UHGV virus genome: UHGV-0047541
Source of the DNA: a virus
Length of the DNA stretch: 35,471 nucleotides
Strand: one strand, 5' to 3'
In this document: positions 4,483-35,471 of the stretch, piece after piece
Layout of the letters: every line of letters begins with the position of its first letter
How positions within the stretch are numbered: the first letter of the stretch is position 1
Notes under the pieces: generated by a model
Told to the model about the DNA's origin: nothing
What the model saw: the letters and a program-made list of their open reading frames with translations, nothing else
Database searches by the model: none
Translations under genes and position numbers: made by a program

Positions 4483-5057
4483 CGCTTTATTACCATCCTC
4501 AGTTGATGCTGCAGCGCATAGCCCAGCTCTTTCGGAAGACGTTCACGCCGTATCCGCTCAATATTTTGTTTAAACGCCGTGGTCAGCGGCACCGCCATCG
4601 GGATTTTCACCACATCAATGGGGTAACGGTTTTTTCCGGCCACACGCTGCATGACATGCCACCGGCCATTTTTCAGTTGCTGAATAAACGCGCCGGGAAT
4701 ACGACGGTTACCCACCACAAGCACGCTGCCGCCACCTTTCAGGGATGAACGCTGCCCCTTTTTACGACGCCTGCGGCGCGAAAGGACAACCCGCGCATTA
4801 CCCAGCTTGATTACGGGCAAATCCCCCCGGTTAACTTTGATTCTGGCCTGCGGATTTTTGACCGTGGCCCTTTTCAGCCTGGCCCTTTCCTTTACCAGTT
4901 TCCGGCGTACCTTTGTCTCACGGGCAACCTGTGACGCCGACTGCGATATCGCGGATGACGCAACGCGGTTAATGGCCATTGCGGCGGCACCAGGCACCGC
5001 CGTTTTGCTGATACGGCTGAGGTTTTCAACGGCCTGCTCAAGACCTTTTATGACCAT
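4479..5057 (-). CDS. Z: tail completion protein Z
   Basis: 192 aa, lambda gpZ-like; position between FII and U. Confidence 0.85.
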   Translation of the reverse strand: MVIKGLEQAVENLSRISKTAVPGAAAMAINRVASSAISQSASQVARETKVRRKLVKERARLKRATVKNPQARIKVNRGDLPVIKLGNARVVLSRRRRRKKGQRSSLKGGGSVLVVGNRRIPGAFIQQLKNGRWHVMQRVAGKNRYPIDVVKIPMAVPLTTAFKQNIERIRRERLPKELGYALQHQLRMVIKR

Positions 5058-7353: not shown

Positions 7354-8859
7354 TTATGGCATGGCCATGAGCATTTTTACGTCCGCATCACCGTCTGCTG
7401 ACGTTTGTGACATGCCGCCCTGCACCGCTGCCGGTGAATGGTTCGCCATGAAACGTTCAAACATGGATGTCGTGGAGGCAGAGACTGGTTCAGCTTTACC
7501 TGATGCAGCAGCCAGTACAGCCCGGGCATTCTCCACGGACATCCCCGGGCAGGCCGCCAGTTTTTCAGCCTGCGCCTCAGCCCCTTTCGCCTCATCCAGG
7601 GCCATGATTTGATCACGGAGTGATAGTCCGGCATCCGCCCGTGGTGAAGCAGCCAGGATCGGGCGGGCTTTTTCCACTGTCATATCCGGCATCGCCGCCA
7701 GCGTTGCAGCCAGTTGTTCACGACCTTTCGCTTCTTCACACGCCATAATGCGATCGGCTTCACTCAGCGGGGATGCCTCCGGCTGCTGCGGTGCCGCCGC
7801 TGCCAGAATCGCCCGGGCCTGCTCAACGCTCATTCCCTGTTGTCCTGCCAGCATCGAGGCAAGCTGTTCACGTCCTTTCGCTTCCTGGCATGTCAGGATC
7901 CCCATCACTCGCTGGTTCTCCTGCGCGACGGCTTCCGTTGCAGTTAATTGCGGCATAGTGCCTCCTGTATCATGTGTGTTCAGCGTCGCGGCCATCACGC
8001 TGATGGCATCCGACGCATTGATTAATTCATCCGCCAGCCCGGCCTCAATACCTGACTGCCCTTCAAAAACAGCGGCCTCTGTCCCCATAACCGTATCCAC
8101 AGATAAACCGGTATACATCGCCACTTTTTCAGCAAACATCCGGCGCGCCGCATCAATGCGCTGCTGCATGTCCTGGCGAACCTCTGACGGCAGGGATTCA
8201 AACTGATTGCCATCCACCTTGTGCGATCCGGCGTAAATAAGCGTGATATCAACACCGGCCTGCGCCAGATGACCGGCATAGCTGACATGGCTCATCATCA
8301 CACCAATGGAGCCGATACGTGATGTCTGGGTAATCAGCCGTCGGGAACAGGCCGATGCCAGCAGCATTGCGGCAGAACAGGCCGTGTCATTGCACAGCGC
8401 CCAGACAGGCTTCTGCTGCCGGAGGCGGTAAATCATGTCAGCGCAGTCAAACGCGCCGGCGGCCTGCCCACCAGGGCTGTCAATATCCAGCAGTACACCC
8501 CGCACCTGGGTATCCGACATTGCCTGCTGAAGACAGGCGACAATGCCGTCATAACCTGTCATTCCGGAAAATGGCCGCATCCCCCCCAGCCGGTGCACCA
8601 GCGTGCCTGTCACCGGCAGTACAGCAATACCATTCACCACCCTGTAAACACGGGCCGGTCGTTTTCCTCCGGCCATGTACTCGTCCGTTTCAGCCAGCAT
8701 CCCGGGAGCATCAAGCTGTACCTGCTGTTGCGGTACCGAAAGACTTGTCGCACCCATCTCACGCCCCAGCGCGCAAAAGAAAACCCGCGCATAGGCGGGC
8801 TCCAGAAGCAGCGGTTCATTGAATGCTGCTGCAATAATGTGTGAAAGATTACGTCTCAC
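7354..8859 (-). CDS. C: capsid assembly protease C with nested scaffold (Nu3-like) C-terminal region
   Basis: 501 aa; N-terminal and S49-peptidase-like core similar to lambda gpC; C-terminal three-fold repeat of EAKGREQLA...GMSVEQARAILAAA-type motif. Confidence 0.85.
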   Translation of the reverse strand: MRRNLSHIIAAAFNEPLLLEPAYARVFFCALGREMGATSLSVPQQQVQLDAPGMLAETDEYMAGGKRPARVYRVVNGIAVLPVTGTLVHRLGGMRPFSGMTGYDGIVACLQQAMSDTQVRGVLLDIDSPGGQAAGAFDCADMIYRLRQQKPVWALCNDTACSAAMLLASACSRRLITQTSRIGSIGVMMSHVSYAGHLAQAGVDITLIYAGSHKVDGNQFESLPSEVRQDMQQRIDAARRMFAEKVAMYTGLSVDTVMGTEAAVFEGQSGIEAGLADELINASDAISVMAATLNTHDTGGTMPQLTATEAVAQENQRVMGILTCQEAKGREQLASMLAGQQGMSVEQARAILAAAAPQQPEASPLSEADRIMACEEAKGREQLAATLAAMPDMTVEKARPILAASPRADAGLSLRDQIMALDEAKGAEAQAEKLAACPGMSVENARAVLAAASGKAEPVSASTTSMFERFMANHSPAAVQGGMSQTSADGDADVKMLMAMP

Positions 8860-10641: not shown

Positions 10642-12553
10642 TCACTCCTCCGGACAGCTTCGCTGCCAGTTCTTCAAGGGTTGGCCGGGTCGTCTCTTCT
10701 TCCCGGGATTTTGCCAGTACAGCCAGATCAAGCTGCCAGCGTTGCACGGACACACGTAATGCTGCGTAGGCATACACCAGGCAGTCCAGCGCTTCGTTAC
10801 GCCGCTTTTTGTTATCCCACAGCAGGCGCATCTTTCCTTTTTCCCACTTCTCCACAAGCTCTTCCGCGACCAGTTGCTGCGCCTCTGTCTGCGAAAAAAT
10901 CTCCGGATTATCAGGAAAACGGATGGCATACGATGTGGCTTCATCTGCAGGTGTGGGACTGGCTTTCATACGGGCATAGAGAATTTCTTTTGCGGTGTCC
11001 GTCCCCACTTCACACAGATACAAGCCCCGCTGATTGCGGGTTTTCGGCATGGTGATCACCGGCTTGCCATAGACAGACGCACCTTTTACCGGTAGCACAC
11101 GGAAAACACCGTGTTTTTTTGACCTCTGGTAAACGATTTCGCCATCGATCCCCCCGGTGTCCCAGCAGACACGGGAAATAGTCATTTCGGTGCCATCCGC
11201 ATGGCGGTATTTTTTGTTAATCACCGCGTCCACACGTAACAGCGTCTCTTCCTCATCAGGACGCCCCATAATGATGATTTTATCCACCAGAAAAGCTTCC
11301 TCTCCCGGTGCCCATCCCCAGACATACATCTCAAAACGGTTTCGCTGCGAGTCAATGCCCGCCGTCAGATAAACCACCCGGTCAGGTACCGCCGCCGTGT
11401 AATGCACGACCTTATCCATCAGAACCTGGTGATCGAGTTTTTCGCCCACGGCCTCTTCCCAGGTCTCGCCCAGCGTGGTGTTCACAAAGGTTTTCAGGCC
11501 GTTGGGATCTTTCAGCGCATCCAGCCAGTCATAGACTATCTGTACCCAGGTGGTAAACGGGCTATAGGCCGTCCAGATGTGGAAAGTGATGGATCGCGGT
11601 GGCGGCATCTCCTCATCACCCGCGCTGTAAAATGTCAGGCCGTCACGTGTCCACATGCCCGTGTTTTCACAGATCCACCGCCCGTTATTCTGTTCAAGCT
11701 CAGACTGATGGATCACACAGCCATGATGCTCACAAAGGTAGAAAACACTTTCTGGCTTATTCTTCTCCCACTTAAGACCGAAAAGCGAGGCATCATCGCC
11801 AAATTTCAGATACTGCTCCTCCCCACAGTGCGGACAGGGCACATAAAAACGCATGAAATGTGCCGACTCGTTAGCGGCTTTTTCGATCTGGCAGGAGCCT
11901 TTGATTTTAGGCGTCGAGCCGCGAATGGATTTTGGCCATACAGAGCCCTCAATACGCTTATCCCCCAGCAGGGTTGGCGAGCCCTCTTTTTCGACATCCG
12001 GCTCGAACGAGGAAAGTTCGTCATAGCAGACCACGTCCACGGATTTTTCACGGTAGTTTTTGGCGGCAGCGCCGCCCAGGCACCAGAAGCCCACACCCGA
12101 TGAAAAGCGTTTCAGCGTGAGAGTATTGTCACGATGTTTACGACCCAGCCATGGGGAAAGGTCTTTCAGGCATGGCACGTCCCGAATCGTCGCCTCCACG
12201 TGAGACTTCATAAAATCTTCAGCGGCAGAATCCGTGGGCTGAAAAAGCAGACTGTTTCGGGATTTATGCTCAATAAAATATCCGACCACCCCCAGCAACA
12301 TCTTTGTATAGCCAACACGGGCAGATTTAATCAGATTAACAGTGCGGATCTGATCATTCCCCATGCTGTTCATGATGGCGATCTGGAATGGCAGCGTTTT
12401 CCATTCTCCCTCACCATATGAAGATTCTTTCGGCAGATAATAATTTTGATCAGCCCATTCAACTGGCGTCACCGGCAATGCCCTTATCAGGGGCTGTAAT
12501 GCTGTTGTGACAGCGCTCATCATATTATTCAGTTGTTGCTCTGATATATTCAT
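10625..12553 (-). CDS. A: terminase large subunit A
   Basis: ORF 10625-12610; probable start is the internal MNISEQQL (12553), matching lambda A MNISNSQ; rest highly similar to lambda gpA. Confidence 0.9.
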   Translation of the reverse strand: MNISEQQLNNMMSAVTTALQPLIRALPVTPVEWADQNYYLPKESSYGEGEWKTLPFQIAIMNSMGNDQIRTVNLIKSARVGYTKMLLGVVGYFIEHKSRNSLLFQPTDSAAEDFMKSHVEATIRDVPCLKDLSPWLGRKHRDNTLTLKRFSSGVGFWCLGGAAAKNYREKSVDVVCYDELSSFEPDVEKEGSPTLLGDKRIEGSVWPKSIRGSTPKIKGSCQIEKAANESAHFMRFYVPCPHCGEEQYLKFGDDASLFGLKWEKNKPESVFYLCEHHGCVIHQSELEQNNGRWICENTGMWTRDGLTFYSAGDEEMPPPRSITFHIWTAYSPFTTWVQIVYDWLDALKDPNGLKTFVNTTLGETWEEAVGEKLDHQVLMDKVVHYTAAVPDRVVYLTAGIDSQRNRFEMYVWGWAPGEEAFLVDKIIIMGRPDEEETLLRVDAVINKKYRHADGTEMTISRVCWDTGGIDGEIVYQRSKKHGVFRVLPVKGASVYGKPVITMPKTRNQRGLYLCEVGTDTAKEILYARMKASPTPADEATSYAIRFPDNPEIFSQTEAQQLVAEELVEKWEKGKMRLLWDNKKRRNEALDCLVYAYAALRVSVQRWQLDLAVLAKSREEETTRPTLEELAAKLSGGVNGNSR

Positions 12554-13034
12554 CGAGTAAATCCGGTAATTTATCCCCCGCCCGCGCACACTGATTTGCC
12601 CCCTTCGCAATAAGGGTTTTCAGATGGTCAAGATGGCGCGGTGTTAAATCAGGAAACTGTCGCTGCATGGATAAAGGGATGGAATCAAGCGTACTGGATA
12701 ACGCCATTGCCAGCTTACTGAGGGCAAAAATACAGAACCCGGTGTCAATAAGTTTTCCTTTTGACACCTCATTTTTTAACTGCTGTGTAACAGCCTGTTC
12801 TGCTGTCAGTTCCCATCTGGCAATAAGCAATTTCTCCTCATAGTCGTCTTCGCTATCGCCACCAGGCACATCGTTTTTACTTCTCCTCAGATACGATATG
12901 TAAAAATCGCGCCAGGCATCCAGATCCAGTTGCCCTCGCTTATTCGATATCGGGGCACCCGGCAATTTCTGCAATCTGCGAAGCTGGCGATCGGTCAGAC
13001 TTAAATGCCTGGCAACTTCAGTCTGCGTAGCCAC
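12525..13034 (-). CDS. Nu1: terminase small subunit (Nu1-like C-terminal region, divergent N-terminal DNA-binding region)
   Basis: 169 aa; C-terminal FCIFALSKLAMALSSTLDSIPLSMQRQFPDLTPRHLDHLK resembles lambda Nu1; N-terminus differs; stop overlaps A start; about 185 bp from cosN. Confidence 0.8.
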   Translation of the reverse strand: MATQTEVARHLSLTDRQLRRLQKLPGAPISNKRGQLDLDAWRDFYISYLRRSKNDVPGGDSEDDYEEKLLIARWELTAEQAVTQQLKNEVSKGKLIDTGFCIFALSKLAMALSSTLDSIPLSMQRQFPDLTPRHLDHLKTLIAKGANQCARAGDKLPDLLDEYIRATTE

Positions 13035-13240: not shown

Positions 13241-14395
13241 GGATCGCCGGAAAGGACCCGCCAGCCAGAGCGGGCCTAAATTCATCAACCAATCAGCTTA
13301 TAGCGGCCATCCCGTGCATTACGGTGTACACGCTCAATATTGAGGCATAGTGCACATCTGGCTTTTTTGGCACAGGAACACGGCAACATTCAGAAGCGCG
13401 AGGAATATTATTTATCCAGTCGATCACTTCGCTTAAATACCAGGCATTGCGTCCTTACGTAACTGACACTGCCTCCAATATTGAAGATGTAAGTTGATAA
13501 GACCTGATAAAAGTTTATATCCAAAATCAAGATAAGACTTATCACTTTAATAAATTAGCAAGAAAACAATACCTCTGATTTACCATGCGGAAATAACTAA
13601 TAGACATTCACTTTTCAGTTTATTATTTTCCAGCAGTACTATACCTTCAGTTAAACACCATTTTTTTACATGTTCAATTTTTATATAACTCATTCAGATT
13701 TATCACCACCAGATTGTGTTTCCACAGAGAATAGCCGGCTAACCTCTGTTATATCGTTGCTTATTTCATCACACGATAACGATATTATTTCCGTTACTGA
13801 TTACCTTAATAAAAATGGCATTTCGCATTGTTTTTACTTTCTGTCAACAGGGAATATAAGGTTTACCACACATAATCAAAGTATGATCACGGTACAGACC
13901 CAAAAAAGATCTGCTTATATAAACCACAGGCCAAATAATATCTGGACAAAACTGGTTATAAAAAAACATTTATCCGGAAACATACCCTTCTTCCGGAGCC
14001 ACTTTACTCTGTCCCGTACAGGCATCTTTAAATATGTTCTGGATGTAAACAGAAAACACTGCCAGTATTACTCAGTAAGAAACCACATTTTGCATTCACA
14101 ATTCATTATTCCGGTTTCTTCCACCATCGCACCGGAAAAGCGACTATGAGGGTAAACCTGCGTCCGTCAGCGCACTAAAACCCGGTGTGCATCGTTTTTG
14201 ATTATTCCCGCACACTCTCGCAGAAGGAGTTCCCCGTCGGGCTACGGTCTCTGTTAATACGGGAATACGGCGACGATACAGCGCATGATGTGTCAGGCTT
14301 GAATACCTTTATCCGTTAAAAAGGATATCAGTTAAGTTATCCCGTGCAGGGTATAAGCCATTATCAAGCCCACCCGTAGATAGGCTTTGTAATGG

Positions 14396-14653
14396 CTACT
14401 TCGCTTTTGCTTCCGCTCGCTTACGCCGGCGCTCTTCTTTCCTCTCGGCTTTTGCCATGTCCATGAATGCCTGCATGATCGAGTTCCGCATCATGTAGCT
14501 AACAAAGTGATGATTGACACAGCCGTTGAGGCGCAGCTGCTCGCCAAACTCATCCACCGAGGCCAATGCTTCCATCATGCCCTTCTCGCCTTTCATGAAC
14601 TCTGAGAAGTCACGCCCCGCTCTGGAGGCGCATTCAATGACACGATCACTCAT
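14396..14653 (-). CDS. hypothetical small protein (85 aa, charged C-terminus), translationally coupled to upstream KilA-N gene
   Basis: ORF with ATGA start/stop overlap with 14650-15147. Confidence 0.5.
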   Translation of the reverse strand: MSDRVIECASRAGRDFSEFMKGEKGMMEALASVDEFGEQLRLNGCVNHHFVSYMMRNSIMQAFMDMAKAERKEERRRKRAEAKAK

Positions 14654-15147
14654 CCCGGAAGCCCCGGGATCGTTATCTGCAGCTGGTTAGCCAGGGCGTT
14701 AATCTCAGCGACCAACACTGGCTTCGTATAGCGCCATGCCGCCAGCCCTTGTCCGCAGAAGCTCGCCATATCTTTTTTCTGATCAAACTCATGACACTTC
14801 ATATTGAGCTGCGCACTTAAGCTGTTGCGATGATGAAGTTCTCCGGTGAAGTAGTCATCCAGGACTTTATAGGCTGCATATTTAAATCCGGGGTTTAGCC
14901 ATGCTGCATAATCATAAGCAACAAACTTCCCGCCATATGTTCCACCGTGTACACCGCGCTCAGTAAAAACCACAGATTCGTGGTTTTTCTCCAGCTCGGC
15001 TAAGAACTCTTTGGTCTGCTTGTTTCGCAGGTAGTGGTACGGAGATTCAGATTCACTTTTACCACTGGCTTTCCACATATCAGTGAGACAGATCATGCCA
15101 TCTTCACCGATGCGAATTGGTTGATTGAAGAGGGTTAATGATTTCAT
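14650..15147 (-). CDS. KilA-N domain protein
   Basis: 165 aa; N-terminal PIRIGEDGMICLTDMWKASGK resembles the KilA-N signature. Confidence 0.55.
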   Translation of the reverse strand: MKSLTLFNQPIRIGEDGMICLTDMWKASGKSESESPYHYLRNKQTKEFLAELEKNHESVVFTERGVHGGTYGGKFVAYDYAAWLNPGFKYAAYKVLDDYFTGELHHRNSLSAQLNMKCHEFDQKKDMASFCGQGLAAWRYTKPVLVAEINALANQLQITIPGLPG

Positions 15148-29449: not shown

Positions 29450-30049
29450 CAAACAAGGTACTAACAAAATTTGGTTGTAACACGGCGTATGGCACATGCG
29501 TCGTTAGCGGTCTGGGGACGTTAAAGGGGACAATCCACTCCTTGCTCGGGCAAACAAACCAGGTAGCCGGAATGTGCAAGTCAATGATGATGCTGATAAG
29601 ACGCCTAACCAGCGTGGCGATTCGGTTTGACGCCTGGGAAGAGACCAGGGTGCAACGATGAGGGCATTTATGGAACCGCCACAAAGTGTGGTGCCGTAAC
29701 TGGCTAAGTGCTCTCAGCGTTGTGGTGAATGCGCAGGCTGATGCGCGAAAGACATTGCAGCTATTGCGGAAAAGAGCTGTTCGGCGGGGCAATTAAATGC
29801 CCGTGAGAGTCTGAAATAACCGCAAGCCGGAGATCAGCACCGGTCACCACAACAGCCACTGCTTTGGCGGTACCAGTTTGTACACTTGCTTCCGGCTGGT
29901 ACCGCTCTTTTTACAAAACAGAGAAGAGCATCACCGGACGACGGGCTCATAACCCAATCCACCCGGGCGGCTGCCACCGCAGGTGTTCTTCTCTGTTTTG
30001 TGGAGAAACCAACCGACCTTGCAGGGTCGATATGATGAGGAGCAGCAAA
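29450..30049 (+). ncRNA. long structured untranslated leader of the leftward early operon (candidate cis-acting antitermination/processing element; no N gene)
   Basis: About 600 nt without credible ORF; nested inverted repeats (GGGCATTTA/TAAATGCCC; GCGGTACCAG/CTGGTACCGC followed by TCTTTTTA; 15-bp ACAAAACAGAGAAGA/TCTTCTCTGTTTTGT) and a boxA-like CGCTCTTTTTACAA. Confidence 0.4.
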
Positions 30050-30412
30050 ATGGCTAGCGAACGCAGTACTGATGTGCAGGCATTTATCGGGGAGCTGGAC
30101 GGCGGCGTATTTGAAACCAAAATCGGCGCAGTTCTCAGTGAAGTCGCTTCAGGTGTGATGAACACGAAAACCAAAGGTAAGGTCTCACTCAACCTGGAAA
30201 TCGAACCATTTGATGAGAACCGTGTGAAAATCAAACACAAACTCTCATATGTTCGCCCGACTAACCGCGGGAAAATTTCCGAAGAAGACACCACCGAAAC
30301 GCCGATGTATGTCAATCGCGGTGGTCGCCTGACTATTCTGCAGGAAGACCAGGGACAATTACTGACTCTTGCCGGTGAACCTGACGGAAAACTCCGCGCA
30401 GCAGGTCATTAA
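30050..30412 (+). CDS. yfdP: YfdP-like protein (120 aa)
   Basis: Start MASERSTDVQAFIGELDGG at 30050 with GAGG RBS; length and position match the CPS-53 yfdP-yfdQ-yfdR order. Confidence 0.55.
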   Translation: MASERSTDVQAFIGELDGGVFETKIGAVLSEVASGVMNTKTKGKVSLNLEIEPFDENRVKIKHKLSYVRPTNRGKISEEDTTETPMYVNRGGRLTILQEDQGQLLTLAGEPDGKLRAAGH

Positions 30413-30477
30413 TATCGTTCTTAATTAACCGATTATTTATCTCATCACTGAATATCTTTATATAGTGAGGACTTATT

Positions 30478-31302
30478 ATGTCTCAGAACTTAGACGCAAC
30501 CGCAATTAATCAAATCCATGCCCTTATTTCTGCTCAGGGTGTTAATGAAATTATCAGTAAGATTGGTGCCGATGCTGTGGCATTGCCTGAGAATTTCCGC
30601 ATTCATGATCTGGAAAAATTTAATTTAAATCGCTTCCGTTTCCGTGGTGCGCTTTCCACTGCCAGCATCGATGACTTTACCCGTTATTCTAAAGATCTTG
30701 CAGATGAAGGCACCCGCTGCTTTATCGATGCCGATAATATGCGAGCAGTCAGTGTGCTTAACCTGGGTACTATTGATGAACCAGGTCACGCAGATAACAC
30801 CGCCACTCTCAAACTGAAAAAGACAGCACCGTTCTCTGCCCTGTTGTCTGTTAACGGCGAGCGTAACTCCCAGAAGTCACTGGCAGAATGGATTGAAGAC
30901 TGGGCCGACTACCTTGTGGGCTTTGATGCTAATGGTGACGCTATTCAGGCAACAAAAGCGGCTGCGGCGGTCCGTAAAATCACGATTGAAGCAAACCAGA
31001 CCGCTGATTTTGAAGATAATGACTTCAGCGGCAAACGCTCCCTGATGGAGTCTGTCGAAGCGAAGACCAAAGATATTATGCCAGTGGCATTTGAATTTAA
31101 ATGCGTTCCGTTTGAAGGTCTGAAAGAACGTCCATTTAAATTACGCCTCAGCATTATCACTGGCGATCGTCCTGTACTGGTTCTGCGCATTATTCAGCTG
31201 GAAGCAGTGCAGGAAGAAATGGCTAACGAATTTCGTGATCTGCTTGTTGAGAAATTCAAAGACAGCAAAGTAGAAACCTTTATTGGTACTTTCACCGCCT
31301 GA
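30478..31302 (+). CDS. yfdQ: DUF2303-family protein YfdQ-like (274 aa)
   Basis: 274-aa [28 protein letters not shown]...; length and context as in CPS-53 yfdQ. Confidence 0.6.
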
Positions 31303-31430
31303 TTTCATTACTGCAAATGCCCCTGCGGGGGCATTTATGGAAACGTAATTAACTAAATAATCGCCGGATGGTGAGGGCTTCCTTTTACCCGAATTCAGCG
31401 CGGTGCAGCGCATATAACGTGGAGAACAAA

Positions 31431-31967
31431 ATGTCATTTATTAAAACTTTTTCCGGGAAGCATTTTTATTATGACAGGATAAATAAAGACAACATCGATA
31501 TTAACGATATCGCGGTTTCCCTTTCAAATATCTGTCGCTTTGCCGGTCATCTTTCACACTTCTACAGCGTCGCCCAACATGCGGTGCTTTGCAGCCAGCT
31601 GGTGCCGCAGGAATTTGCTTTTGAAGCGTTAATGCATGATGCAACAGAAGCGTATTGCCAGGACATCCCCGCGCCACTGAAACGCCTTCTTCCTGACTAT
31701 AAACGGCTGGAAGAAAAAATAGACGCCGTAATCCGTGAGAAATACGGGTTACCCCCGGTTATGAGTACGCCCGTGAAATATGCCGATCTCATCATGCTGG
31801 CAACCGAACGCCGCGATCTCGGGCTTGATGATGGCTCTTTCTGGCCTGTACTGGAAGGCATCCCGGCAACAGAGATGTTCAACGTGATTCCACTGGCACC
31901 GGGCCATGCCTACGGGATGTTTATGGAACGCTTCAACGAGTTATCGGAATTACGCAAATGTGCATAA
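31431..31967 (+). CDS. yfdR: HD-domain 5-prime-deoxynucleotidase YfdR-like (178 aa)
   Basis: Start MSFIKTF at 31431 with GGAGA RBS; HD-domain residues (H...HD: SVAQHAV, ALMHDATEAY). Confidence 0.65.
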   Translation: MSFIKTFSGKHFYYDRINKDNIDINDIAVSLSNICRFAGHLSHFYSVAQHAVLCSQLVPQEFAFEALMHDATEAYCQDIPAPLKRLLPDYKRLEEKIDAVIREKYGLPPVMSTPVKYADLIMLATERRDLGLDDGSFWPVLEGIPATEMFNVIPLAPGHAYGMFMERFNELSELRKCA

Positions 31968-32836
31968 CTCATGTAGTTAGTTTTTCTGGCGGGAGAACAT
32001 CTGCATATCTTGTTCACCTGATGGAAGAACAAAGAAAGGCTGGCAATAACGTCTGCTACATCTTTATGGATACCGGTTGCGAACATCCGCTGACATACCG
32101 CTTTATTCGGGAGGTTGTGAAGTTCTGGGGCATACCGCTAACTGTGTTGCAGGTCGATATAAATCCAGAGCTTGGGCAGCCAAATGGTTATACGGAATGG
32201 GAACCACAGGATATTCAGACACGAATGCCGGTGCTTAAACCGTTTATGGACATGGTAAAAAAATATGGCACGCCATACATCGGCGGCGCGTTCTGCACTG
32301 ACAGATTAAAACTCACCCCCTTCACAAAATACTGCGATGACCATTTCGGACGAGGGAATTACATCACATGGCTGGGTATTCGTGCAGACGAACCTCGTAG
32401 GCTGAAACCGAAATCGGGCGTCCGGTATCTTGCCGAGCTATCTGATTTTGATAAGTCGGATGTTATCCGGTGGTGGCATAAACAACCTTTTGATTTGCAA
32501 ATCCCGGAGCACCTCGGGAACTGTGTTTTCTGCATCAAAAAGTCCACGCAAAAGCTGGGGCTTGCATGTAAAGACGAACCTGGTCTGATGCGAGTTTTTA
32601 ATGAGCTGGTTACAGGTAAACACGTCCGGGATGGTCACCGAAAGACAAATAAAGACGTTATGTACCGTGGTCATCTGAGCCTTGACGGGATTGCCAGAAT
32701 GTATGCCGACAGCGACTACAGAAATTTGTATCAGGCGATGGTGCAAGCCAGGCGATTCGATACCGGCTCGTGTTCAGAGTCATGTGAAATCTGGGGTGAT
32801 CAATTGGAATTGAAATTCGAAGAGGTGGTGGCATGA
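31958..32836 (+). CDS. phosphoadenosine-phosphosulfate reductase family (PP-loop ATP pyrophosphatase) protein
   Basis: 292 aa; N-terminal VVSFSGGRTSAYL PP-loop (SGGxxS) motif; Cys-rich C-terminus. Confidence 0.65.
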   Translation: MCITHVVSFSGGRTSAYLVHLMEEQRKAGNNVCYIFMDTGCEHPLTYRFIREVVKFWGIPLTVLQVDINPELGQPNGYTEWEPQDIQTRMPVLKPFMDMVKKYGTPYIGGAFCTDRLKLTPFTKYCDDHFGRGNYITWLGIRADEPRRLKPKSGVRYLAELSDFDKSDVIRWWHKQPFDLQIPEHLGNCVFCIKKSTQKLGLACKDEPGLMRVFNELVTGKHVRDGHRKTNKDVMYRGHLSLDGIARMYADSDYRNLYQAMVQARRFDTGSCSESCEIWGDQLELKFEEVVA

Positions 32837-33036
32837 CAATCGTAAAAACCCATACCGGCATTGTGATCACCAAAGACGGCCCGCAGGTAAAAAAACTTCA
32901 CCAGACAGAGCGGATGTGGGTCGTGGGCAAAAACGAGTTTTACCACAAAGAAACCGGACGCCGCCACTTTGCAGAAAATACGCGCCGCCGACTACTGATC
33001 GACACCATCAAGCCTATCGAGGTGAAGCATGTTTAA
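32833..33036 (+). CDS. hypothetical small protein
   Basis: 67-aa ORF translationally coupled in operon. Confidence 0.45.
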   Translation: MTIVKTHTGIVITKDGPQVKKLHQTERMWVVGKNEFYHKETGRRHFAENTRRRLLIDTIKPIEVKHV

Positions 33037-33253
33037 ACAGAACGAAAAATCTATCGCTCAAATTGCTGAGTATATCCCGCGTGCGTGCCGGGGTATGCAG
33101 TTGCAGGAAGCCAAAGCGCGCCTGGAGAAAAAAATTGCGCTCTATATCGATGACGGCTGTGATGCTGCCGTTCTTAACGCGGCGTTCGCGCCAGCTCTTA
33201 ACAGTCATACGCGGGAGTCTTTTTTTTTCGCGCATCGCAGCGCAGATCCGTAA
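33029..33253 (+). CDS. hypothetical small protein
   Basis: 74-aa ORF overlapping previous stop. Confidence 0.45.
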   Translation: MFKQNEKSIAQIAEYIPRACRGMQLQEAKARLEKKIALYIDDGCDAAVLNAAFAPALNSHTRESFFFAHRSADP

Positions 33254-33265
33254 AGGAGGCAACCA

Positions 33266-33577
33266 GTGAGCAATTATCTGTACTGGTCTGGCTTAGTGGC
33301 TAACATTGCGCTCATGTTGTTCGTGGCTCTTTGCATCTGGGTTTGGTTTATCTGGCCTTTTGTAGAGGCCATGAGCATAACTCGGTGCTTTATTTGCGCA
33401 TCAAAGACTTCTGGATGCAAACCAACTGTAAGAGCAATTATCAGAACTTTAAAATACTGGTATCTGGATTTGCTTTTCGGCAGGGGCTGGACGCGAATTA
33501 GTAACCGCCAGTTTGAATGGGAAGGCGTCGGTAACTGGCGAATTCACAGCAGCAAAGAAACGCAGGAGGTGAAGTAA
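33266..33577 (+). CDS. hypothetical membrane protein
   Basis: 103 aa with N-terminal hydrophobic helix LVANIALMLFVALCIWVWFIWPF. Confidence 0.5.
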   Translation: MSNYLYWSGLVANIALMLFVALCIWVWFIWPFVEAMSITRCFICASKTSGCKPTVRAIIRTLKYWYLDLLFGRGWTRISNRQFEWEGVGNWRIHSSKETQEVK

Positions 33578-34149
33578 TGAACAACTTAATGATCGACCTT
33601 GAGACGATGGGGAAAAATAAGGATGCACCAATCGTTTCCATTGGCGCGGTGTTCTTCACCCCAGAAACCGGAGACATCGGACAAGAATTCTATACGGTTG
33701 TCAGCCTGGAAAGTGCTATGGAGCAAGGGGCCACACCTGACGGCGATACCATCCTGTGGTGGTTGAAACAGAGCCCTGAAGCACGAGCTGCAATCTGTAT
33801 TGATGATACTTTGTCGATCAGCGATGCACTCTCTGAACTGAGCCATTTCATTAATCAGCATGCAGACAATACAAAATATTTAAAAGTCTGGGGTAACGGG
33901 GCCACCTTCGACAACGTAATTTTACGTGGAGCTTATGAGCGAGCAGGACAAATCTGCCCGTGGGCATACTGGAATGACCACGATGTACGCACGATCGTTA
34001 CGCTTGGGCGTTCCATCGGATTCGACCCCAAAATGGACATGCCTTTCGATGGCGAACGGCACAACGCCCTGGCCGATGCCCGTCATCAGGCAAAATATGT
34101 TTCCGCTATCTGGCAGAAATTAATTCCTGCCACCAGCACAGAATTATGA
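33577..34149 (+). CDS. DEDDh-family 3-prime to 5-prime exonuclease
   Basis: 190 aa; Exo motifs MIDLETMG, WGNGATFD, H-NALADA; AGGAGG RBS upstream. Confidence 0.7.
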   Translation: MNNLMIDLETMGKNKDAPIVSIGAVFFTPETGDIGQEFYTVVSLESAMEQGATPDGDTILWWLKQSPEARAAICIDDTLSISDALSELSHFINQHADNTKYLKVWGNGATFDNVILRGAYERAGQICPWAYWNDHDVRTIVTLGRSIGFDPKMDMPFDGERHNALADARHQAKYVSAIWQKLIPATSTEL

Positions 34150-34185
34150 TTTTCCCGGGTGCAGCCGGTTTTGATGGAGAAAATT

Positions 34186-34467
34186 ATGAACACCTTGTTT
34201 TTACTGATGGCTGAATTCAATACCCCTAACATTGAACTCTCAGCAGTTAGCCAAAAGTACTTTGGCATGAGTCCAGCCACGGCAGAAGCAAAAGCAAACG
34301 CTTGTAAGTTGCCCGTTCCAACATATCGCATCGGCACATCACAAAAAGCAAAACGTTGCATCAATATTCAGGATCTTGCGGAATACATAGACAAAAGACG
34401 AGAAGAAGGACGTATCGAGTGGGAACAGGTCAGAACAAGCAAACAGAAGGGCAAAGAACATCACTAA
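34186..34467 (+). CDS. excisionase-like (AlpA/PrtN-type) DNA-binding protein
   Basis: ORF 34159-34467; start MNTLFLL at 34186 preceded by GGAGA; small basic protein at the distal end of the early-left operon. Confidence 0.5.
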   Translation: MNTLFLLMAEFNTPNIELSAVSQKYFGMSPATAEAKANACKLPVPTYRIGTSQKAKRCINIQDLAEYIDKRREEGRIEWEQVRTSKQKGKEHH

Positions 34468-34469
34468 AG

Positions 34470-34497
34470 AAAAAACCCGCCTTTAGGCGGGTTTTCA
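34470..34497. terminator. bidirectional intrinsic terminator
   Basis: AAAAAACCCGCC-TTTA-GGCGGGTTTT with A/T runs on both sides, between convergent genes. Confidence 0.75.
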
Positions 34498-34514
34498 AAA
34501 AGCACCAGCTATGA

Positions 34515-34688
34515 TCATGCTGCTTTGCGACGACGAAGCTTACCCTGCTGCTCTTTACCAGAGACAGTAGCGTGAGTGAACGCATTAGGAGCAGCCTTCA
34601 TCAGAACTTCAACAGCAGCACCCATACCTGCGAATGCTTTCATTGTGTCGAACTTAACCTGTGGCTTGGTTGCTTTTTGATCTTTCAT
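34515..34688 (-). CDS. hypothetical small protein (57 aa), below ORF-track threshold
   Basis: Minus-strand ATG at 34688 preceded by GGGAG RBS; MKDQKATKPQVKFDTMKAFAGMGAAVEVLMKAAPNAFTHATVSGKEQQGKLRRRKAA; ends at the bidirectional terminator. Confidence 0.5.
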   Translation of the reverse strand: MKDQKATKPQVKFDTMKAFAGMGAAVEVLMKAAPNAFTHATVSGKEQQGKLRRRKAA

Positions 34689-34884
34689 AGAAAACTCCCG
34701 AGACAGTAAAGGCGTCTCTAACCCTCTCTTTAAAGCTAGCTTGTTTCGCTAACTTATGCCAATCGATCATGTCGATTGGTGACATCGTTTCTTAGTAGTT
34801 TAAGCACAAAACGACTGCCATAGATGTACCTTTAAGGTAATCTGGACGGGTATCCTACAATTTGTAGACCCTTCTCGTCTATAC

Positions 34885-35421
34885 CTACTGAGCAAATTTA
34901 AGAAAGATATCCTGCAGCTCATCAATGACTGCAGACATCACATAACCGCACTGTTCCATGCGGAAACCAAAAGACTCGTAATACTGCACCAGTTCTGGTA
35001 CTGGCTCTACAATGTGGACAACTTTACATTCAACAGCTTTACAAAATATAAAAGCACTCATAAGAGTGAGTAAAACCATGCGCCCTTTCAATGGGTGAGA
35101 TTCATCTTCTCTAGAAAACCTTTCGATCATATGGATACGAAAGATGTTTTCTTCAACCCCATAAACACAAATTGCTGCTCCTGATGGTATTCCCTGAACC
35201 CGACCTTGCTGAACAAGTTTTATGCAGAACTCATACTTTTCTCTGGAGTTGCCATAGGTGCTTAACGCATAGTCCCATTCAAGCTCACCATAGCCACCAC
35301 ACAGAATCTTGTAATCATCATCACTGAGCGGACCAACAGCAAGAGGTAAGCCGACATGATCAATAATCAACTGGATATTGTTACGTACAGATTGACCTAT
35401 CTCGTCTAGGGTAAGCATCAT
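34885..35421 (-). CDS. hypothetical protein, low-GC cargo gene
   Basis: 178-aa ORF in a region of about 42 percent GC; no confident family assignment. Confidence 0.5.
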   Translation of the reverse strand: MMLTLDEIGQSVRNNIQLIIDHVGLPLAVGPLSDDDYKILCGGYGELEWDYALSTYGNSREKYEFCIKLVQQGRVQGIPSGAAICVYGVEENIFRIHMIERFSREDESHPLKGRMVLLTLMSAFIFCKAVECKVVHIVEPVPELVQYYESFGFRMEQCGYVMSAVIDELQDIFLKFAQ

Positions 35422-35471
35422 AGACTCTCAAGCGGAACACTAAAAATCTCATTATATCTCATTCTGATGCC

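Follow-up and report, generated by a model that had tools for sequence, protein, structure and literature searches.

The viral genome UHGV-0047541, a stretch of 35,471 nt that is called the window here and to whose whole length all coordinates refer, ends in an arrangement that raises a question. After a gene resembling an excisionase gene (xis), where an integrase gene would be expected, two genes follow on the opposite strand, encoding proteins of 57 and 178 aa. Where is the integrase, do the two genes belong to the phage, and what might they do? Sequence comparison shows that the region forms the final ~1 kb in the right arm of a lambdoid prophage of the mEp460 type, integrated by a dusA-associated tyrosine integrase into the host gene for tRNA-dihydrouridine synthase, dusA, at its 5' end. 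The two minus-strand genes, together with a leader RNA between them, form a self-contained and horizontally mobile three-part cassette. As a whole, a dusA prophage arm bearing a mobile cassette of a GNAT (GCN5-related N-acetyltransferase) gene, a leader and a 57-aa protein gene, with a toxin-partner function, is the explanation that we favor and consider fairly probable.

Integration Site and Location of the Integrase Gene

Two minus-strand open reading frames (ORFs) following the Xis-like gene and a terminator were found as described in the original prediction, the gene for the 57-aa protein at 34515–34688 and the gene for the 178-aa protein at 34885–35421. As had also been stated, no integrase ORF was present from xis to the end of the window. 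The last 1972 bases of the window recur at 95–100% identity in 742 of 5426 complete E. coli genomes, and the same right-end bases match the cultured phage mEp460 (NC_019716) at 97.8% identity. The counterpart of the last 1.9 kb of the window is gp23–gp26 of mEp460 (97.8% identical). The gene order of mEp460 is exonuclease (gp26), excisionase (gp25), gp24 (57 aa), gp23 (178 aa), a 340-bp gap, integrase (gp22) and DinI, with gp24 and gp23 on the strand opposite to gp25 and gp26.

The entire prophage was followed on two chromosomes, that of E. coli 873.10 and OZ038590, the record most closely related to the window in its right arm. One prophage end has the integrase and DinI genes beside an intact dusA, and the opposite end, ~40 kb off, has the xis, 57-aa and GNAT genes; this holds for both chromosomes. 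The integrase of these closest relatives is a 365-aa tyrosine recombinase encoded 88 bp from dusA, at the far prophage end, beyond what the window covers. In 873.10, a 105-bp dusA 5' pseudogene (RefSeq), yjbM and zur come after the 178-aa gene; in OZ038590, zur comes directly after this gene, and no dusA remnant is annotated. A BLAST comparison detected a 107-bp direct repeat of the dusA 5' end, 83% identical, at both prophage junctions, and the phage copy of this dusA-like repeat in mEp460 sits between gp23 and int. A four-way alignment of attB (K-12), attP (mEp460), attL and attR gave an 8-bp identical crossover core, ATGCTCGA in the dusA sense.

The lack of an integrase after xis is explained by the position of attP, between the cargo and int. 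In the free phage, the exonuclease gene and xis are followed by the convergent 57-aa and GNAT genes, then by attP with its 107-bp imitation of the dusA 5' end, and then by int, transcribed in the same direction as xis. Integration leaves int beside the rebuilt dusA at attL and carries xis and the cargo ~40 kb away to attR, where the cargo is beside the displaced native dusA 5' remnant. The integrase is thus not missing but lies at the opposite prophage end, beside dusA. This integration architecture is already known biology.

The prophage boundary had been proposed to lie near 34470–34500. However, position 35412 of the window corresponds to position 47226 of locus L003, in which the attR repeat occupies 47380–47486, so the att core and the displaced dusA 5' remnant should start ~95 nt past the window end. 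When mapped onto the same locus, the segment at 35422–35471 would be the start of the phage P-arm of attR. Just beyond the right end of the window, GGGAACC/GGTTCCC motifs (e.g., TGGGAACCCG) flank the att core in repeated copies, at 47290–47345 and 6690–6730 of L003 and at 7940–8180 of L002; integrase or Xis probably binds these repeats as arm-type sites.

If the prophage instead ended at the terminator, the two genes would be flanking host or island DNA, as the original prediction had allowed. The strand switch, the terminator at 34471–34496 and the slightly lower GC content fit this reading, but both genes lie within the packaged genome of the free phage mEp460, between xis and attP, the att repeats are outside both genes, and the unoccupied dusA site of E. 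coli K-12 contains neither gene. We consider flanking DNA highly improbable. Furthermore, the 178-aa gene was found in only 358 of the 5426 E. coli genomes, and this occurrence and the empty K-12 site rule out that the cargo genes are core host genes of prophage-free strains. The GC content of the 178-aa gene was 41.7%, in agreement with the ~42% noted previously, and that of the spacer, the small gene and xis was 41.8%, 47.7% and 43.3%, respectively, compared with 47.3% for the surroundings (30000–34500) and 50.1% for the whole window. The cargo region is mildly AT-rich, yet hardly distinct from xis.

Distribution and Insertion Contexts of the Cassette

Loci were gathered from contigs encoding homologues, the species-representative genome set, IMG/VR and annotated collections. 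A homologue of the 57-aa gene was located downstream of the GNAT gene, on the same strand and 93–197 nt away, in 108 of 108 loci with 41 distinct spacers, a count that predates the Salmonella and Shewanella baltica loci. The genera represented were Escherichia, Pseudescherichia, Franconibacter, Enterobacter, Citrobacter, Serratia, Edwardsiella, Photorhabdus, Xenorhabdus, Brenneria and Shewanella, and the Salmonella loci show the same pair. Pairing persists down to ~40% identity. Of the complete E. coli genomes (n = 5426), 358 (~7%) had the GNAT gene, 358 had the pair and 562 had the small gene; the GNAT gene without the small gene was found in none, and the small gene without the GNAT gene in 204. 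The listed E. coli carriers include O157:H7, O145 and O111 strains, many of them from cattle and food, and prophages of E. coli and Salmonella commonly carry the cassette. Divergence of the two proteins is correlated (r 0.87), although linkage alone would yield such a correlation. Four copies of the cassette are on E. coli plasmid records, which may be phage-plasmids or misassembled prophages.

The position of the cassette differs among hosts. In E. coli, Salmonella and Shewanella frigidimarina, it adjoins the att site; in Citrobacter, Serratia and Edwardsiella, it separates antiterminator Q from the lysis genes; in Brenneria, it comes directly after a cI-like repressor gene; and in Photorhabdus, it is within a tail-gene cluster. 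One proposal for the two genes had been a moron at the prophage end. This agrees with what was found, as they are the last genes of the right arm, are present in the mEp460 virion genome and occupy a slot that is variable among sister phages.

Other cargo was identified in the slot between xis and attP. In Lys8385Vzw and SKA5, the same frame of xis, 57-aa gene, attP and int is present, and a Panacea-domain gene (PF13274, 2e-19) replaces the GNAT gene and the leader; the Panacea antitoxin gene overlaps a 139-aa gene, and the small ORF starts 39 nt after. In phiSTEC1575-Stx2k, a DUF4065 (Panacea) gene and a 182-aa gene directly follow xis, without the small gene. The same 182-aa gene follows xis in 1720a-02, the record of which stops there. 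In Shewanella baltica, a TacA1/TacT-like pair and a HEPN-like gene precede the small gene. These alternative-cargo slots are located at 4955–6156 of L005, 4954–6155 of L006, 3432–4476 of L007 and 1610–4174 of L118. Some of these loci retain the 57-aa gene and lack the leader RNA. Judging from gene content, cargo of the toxin–antitoxin type alternates with the GNAT gene in the same slot.

These contexts bear on whether the GNAT protein might serve in anti-defense or host takeover, acetylating an immune protein or a host factor during lytic growth, much as AcrVA5 acetylates Cas12a. The cassettes of Citrobacter, Serratia and Edwardsiella are just downstream of Q in late-gene orientation and that of Photorhabdus is inside the tail operon, and both positions would mean late transcription in infection. 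However, the positions in E. coli, Salmonella and Brenneria are typical of lysogeny (att-adjacent on the opposite strand, or after cI), the alternative cargo of the slot is of the toxin–antitoxin and not of the anti-defense type, and similarity to known Acr proteins is limited to the generic fold. An anti-defense role is unlikely in our estimation.

Predicted Fold of the 178-aa Protein

Both cargo proteins had been described as lacking a recognizable family. At the sequence level this stands, since neither the 178-aa nor the 57-aa protein matched Pfam, NCBIfam, PADLOC or PDB sequences, and both fall only in PHROGs of unknown function (4350 for the 178-aa protein and 2741 for the 57-aa protein). 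At the level of fold it does not stand for the larger protein, which is predicted to have a GNAT fold. The gene begins with tandem ATG codons at 35416–35421, and homologues and RefSeq start at the second (35418), which is probably the start codon and would give 177 and not 178 aa.

The 178-aa protein matched no Pfam or NCBIfam GNAT model at E ≤ 1–10. Its homologues form 51 clusters in 5.8 billion proteins, all from Enterobacterales plus Shewanella, and a profile search of 1.84 billion representatives returned 96 relatives only. When 50 distant relatives were compared with Pfam, there was 1 marginal Acetyltransf_1 match and no bridge to a characterized GNAT subfamily. With a broadened profile, a marginal in-register match to nourseothricin acetyltransferase was obtained (E 0.075).

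The AlphaFold2 model of the 178-aa protein, made from 39 sequences, had a predicted local distance difference test (pLDDT) score of 90.1 and a predicted template modeling (pTM) score of 0.88. Its fold, beta1-alpha1-alpha2-beta2-beta3-beta4-alpha3-beta5-alpha4-beta6, is as in the GNAT superfamily. The invariant residues are H97 and E100 in strand beta4, H109-P-L-x-G113 before helix alpha3, and Y148..G152-F153 in alpha4. In the model, H97/E100 and Y148 would occupy the positions that the catalytic base and acid have in active GNATs, H109-P-L-x-G113 would be at the position of the pyrophosphate loop, and Y148..G152-F153 would be at that of motif B. GNAT motif B (aromatic-x-x-x-G-F) is present and invariant as Y148..G152-F153. 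The best structural matches were eukaryotic and archaeal N-terminal acetyltransferases and bacterial RimI, with which the 178-aa protein shares only 8–14% identity; unlike these, it has a beta4-alpha3 loop of 13 residues, with HPLKGRM replacing Q/RxxGxG/A. It is well supported by the model that the larger protein is a GNAT-fold enzyme invisible to sequence methods, with predicted acyltransferase activity.

The 57-aa Protein

Homologues of the 57-aa protein were found across Enterobacterales and Shewanella. In 27 homologues, differences at codon positions 1, 2 and 3 of the small ORF numbered 2048, 2023 and 5414, respectively. This excess at the third codon position argues for a real coding gene under purifying selection, and a non-coding artefact was ruled out by the same pattern. 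When modeled alone with AlphaFold2, the protein had a pLDDT of 60 and one short helix at residues 23–32, and it is predicted to be largely disordered on its own. The C-terminal tail, encoded at 34515–34545, has the conserved pattern ...E-x-QGK-x-R-x-RKAA and ends in QGKLRRRKAA here. Its Ala-Ala end might, speculatively, be compared with ssrA-like ClpXP degrons, which it loosely resembles.

Structured RNA between the Two Genes

The 196-nt spacer between the two genes (34689–34884, minus strand) appears from folding and covariation to be a structured intergenic or leader RNA. On the sense strand, the spacer of the window had a minimum free energy (MFE) of −60.3 kcal/mol (z −3.48, 0/200 shuffles), compared with −50.2 (z −1.96) for the antisense strand; over the 41 spacers, the mean z was −2.7 for sense and −2.0 for antisense. 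Many of the leader pairs are G-U on the sense strand. Because of these G-U pairs and because the sense strand folds better than the antisense strand, the RNA is probably read in gene direction.

Five hairpins were assigned on the minus strand, with coordinates that are MFE regions and possibly contain unpaired flanks: B at 34822–34843 (core TTACC/GGTAA), F at 34780–34820, C at 34759–34779 (CCAATCGA/TCGATTGG), D at 34733–34755 (AAGTTAGC/GCTAGCTT) and the E region at 34700–34728 (GAGAC/GTCTC). Helix E, the last hairpin, abuts the Shine–Dalgarno sequence GGGAG. In an alignment (MAFFT) of 30 distinct cassettes of the Enterobacteriaceae type, the stems are kept and the loops vary. Elsewhere, helix C takes the forms CCAATCGG/CCGATTGG, CTGATTGG/CCAATTGG and CCAATTG/CGATTGG, and helix D the forms GGATAG/CTATCC, GAGTAG/CTACTC and AGTAGTGG/CCACTACT. 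The arms of helices B and F change yet remain paired in folds of the individual sequences; the B-extension and F are given as such folds only, because MAFFT places the bulges inconsistently.

For four helices in the MAFFT alignment, without model fitting, 93.2% of the cells were paired, compared with 20–43% with slid partners. Double-sided changes were found in 35 cells, compared with 13.0 ± 2.9 in shuffles (0/500), and the covariation score was 0.247, compared with 0.175 in shuffles and ≤0.082 in slid versions. A second alignment of the leader gave the same result. The covariation provides good support, though not proof, for the predicted structure, as the statistics ignore phylogenetic relatedness.

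A search of Rfam gave no match in 34689–34884 at E ≤ 1; the other Rfam matches were the terminator hairpin (34463–34566) and one spurious sub-threshold match inside the GNAT gene. A covariance model of helices C–E had a single match in the window, at 34686–34786 on the minus strand (94.5 bits). Its matches in the searched loci were limited to the source cassettes of the Enterobacteriaceae type, the window and L003, and it detected no leader in the loci of Photorhabdus, Edwardsiella, Serratia, Brenneria, Xenorhabdus or Shewanella or in those of the Panacea type. Since the model fails in the more distant cassettes, the leader RNA seems to be confined to an Enterobacteriaceae subset.

Expression Signals of the Cassette

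A perfect −10-like hexamer, TATAAT, can be read off the minus strand at 35451–35456, 30 nt upstream of the first ATG of the GNAT gene and with a weak −35, and may be a promoter of the cassette's own. At the other end, a hairpin at 34471–34496, with an 11-bp stem containing 6 G-C pairs, is a clear terminator common to the convergent xis and 57-aa genes. After the stem, the minus strand reads TTTTTTCTTT; a T-run is present on this strand and a weaker one on the plus strand, and the hairpin is the sole convincing terminator in the region. The cassette of the lysogen is oriented away from the early operon, with the native dusA promoter and 5' fragment, now displaced, upstream of it on its own strand. 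By its geometry, the cassette would be placed for expression during lysogeny.

Possible Function of the Cassette

For the function of the cassette, we tentatively propose that the GNAT protein is a potentially harmful acetyltransferase effector restrained by the 57-aa protein as an antidote or modulator. The 57-aa protein would be a required partner of the GNAT protein, most simply a labile antidote or inhibitor, its basic tail would occupy the substrate groove of the GNAT protein, and the structured leader would adjust synthesis of the small protein. The gain for the lysogen would be a role in addiction, exclusion or abortive infection. This proposal fits the asymmetry of the pair, in which the small gene can stand by itself and the GNAT gene does not, and it fits the toxin–antitoxin-type company in the slot. 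A toxin/modulator pair had been one of the original proposals; it is plausible, the two genes being strictly conserved as a unit, but the features of the known GNAT/RHH toxin–antitoxin family are absent. That the cassette is a new GNAT toxin–antidote, abortive-infection or exclusion module with a 57-aa antidote and leader-gated translation, spread by phages through E. coli, Salmonella, Citrobacter, Enterobacter, Serratia, Photorhabdus and Shewanella, is a more specific claim and one that we make with greater hesitation.

A lysogenic-conversion enzyme deserves the same tentative weight as the toxin–antidote function. The GNAT protein would then harmlessly acetylate a host protein or a small molecule, the latter an antibiotic or toxin (e.g., streptothricin, an aminoglycoside or a microcin), and the small gene would be an independent moron or a conserved flank. 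The presence of the small gene beside unrelated cargo supports this alternative. However, the GNAT gene was never found without the small gene in the 108 loci, the 358 genomes and the four insertion contexts, a dedicated structured leader links both genes, and resistance GNATs normally act alone.

Several results weigh against a toxin–antidote function. The small gene also occurs without the GNAT gene, beside other cargo, and for this reason it may be independent or a conserved recombination flank. At the position of motif A, the GNAT protein has a shortened, non-canonical HPLKGRM (H109-P-L-K-G113-R-M) and not Q/RxxGxG/A; because this pyrophosphate-binding motif is non-canonical, the use of acetyl-CoA is not assured. 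The MFE fold of the leader pairs the Shine–Dalgarno sequence and the AUG with an upstream GUAGGAU segment, but the centroid fold does not, and gating of small-gene translation by the leader is only a suggestion from the predicted folds. A consensus promoter scan of the window and the att regions found no promoter above chance; the TATAAT hexamer was not called because its −35 is poor. PADLOC returned no match for the cassette, and literature searches on mEp460, on both protein accessions and on GNATs and prophages found no characterization of either gene. The arrangement is also unlike that of known GNAT toxins, with no ribbon–helix–helix (RHH)/DUF1778 protein, a reversed gene order and a spacer of 93–197 nt.

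The last of these points bears equally on whether the pair is a canonical GNAT/RHH type II toxin–antitoxin system (TacAT, AtaRT, KacAT, ItaRT), which would acetylate aminoacyl-tRNA. The partner carries no TacA, DUF1778 or RHH domain according to Pfam, and it is encoded downstream, not upstream, and ~190 nt away. The GNAT protein has no Pfam GNAT match and only one marginal match among its 50 distant relatives, and its structural matches to TacT were no better than those to dozens of unrelated GNATs. An hhalign comparison with a TacT-like toxin gave 5% probability, which is not significant and which also weighs against the toxin–antidote proposal. By sequence and gene order, canonical membership fails on the defining features, and we regard it as very unlikely.

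Other Features of the Window

To the left of the cassette are the last two genes of the leftward early operon. The penultimate member, at 33577–34149 on the plus strand, encodes an Rv2179c-like 3'-5' exonuclease (Pfam PF16473, 1.2e-75) and is annotated as an exonuclease in E. coli and mEp460. The last, xis, is a PrtN-family Xis-like gene at 34186–34467 on the plus strand (PF11112 PrtN, 3e-23) and a candidate for an excisionase or recombination directionality factor; it matches PHROG 1300 'excisionase' at 1e-39, and its mEp460 counterpart, gp25, is annotated as an excisionase. A 292-aa gene of the PAPS-reductase family is also located in the early operon, at 31958–32836; it is present in OZ038590 and absent from 873.10 and mEp460.

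Positions 1–25000 of the window contain lambda-like head and tail genes (terminase A, portal B, tape measure H); 873.10 and OZ038590, which have a similar right arm, carry Mu-like baseplate and sheath genes instead. Mosaicism around the common dusA integration module is strong. The sharpest dip in GC content of the window, 32.6% at 13501–14000, coincides with a plus-strand ORF of 159 aa (13670–14149), which has minus-strand ORFs at 12525–13034 and 14396–15147 as neighbors and may be another moron.

Comparison with Known Systems

An element with a dusA-associated integrase enters the gene at its 5' end, restores a complete dusA and leaves the original 5' portion behind as a remnant (Farrugia et al. 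2015, PMC4482086). The prophage described here resembles these dusA-associated integrase elements in that the integrase is directly beside the dusA 5' end, as seen in the closest relatives of the window, a substitute dusA 5' end is supplied, the native remnant is at the far end, and attL and attR are imperfect direct repeats. There is no essential difference from such elements or from mEp460; the window holds the attR-proximal arm only, with int and the att core outside. In phages that target dusA, the integrase and excisionase genes are split by the att site, and one prophage end may consequently appear to have no integrase gene; annotation pipelines should expect such ends in dusA prophages.

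Like TacT/TacA, AtaT/AtaR, KacT/KacA and ItaT/ItaR, the cassette combines a GNAT-fold protein of ~175 aa with a small protein on a mobile element. Antitoxin tails plug the active site of GNAT toxins, and the partner here shares with the RHH antitoxins a basic, probably disordered C-terminal tail. Unlike in systems of the TacAT type, the partner has 57 aa and no RHH/DUF1778 domain, and is encoded downstream, with a structured RNA of ~190 nt between the genes, and there is no relationship to these systems at the sequence level. The cassette thus departs from the known GNAT toxin systems, and its leader RNA is unrecorded in Rfam. If it is a defense or addiction module, it would represent a new architecture among GNAT toxin systems. 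Because mEp460 is culturable, the cassette is a reasonable experimental lead.

Phage morons include bor, lom and rexAB of lambda, gp15 of HK97, and stx in the slot between Q and the lysis genes. The cassette resembles these in being compact and autonomous, in having a GC content below that of its surroundings, in lying at classic moron positions and in being present or absent among close relatives. It differs from the morons named in comprising two genes, with a conserved structured RNA separating them.

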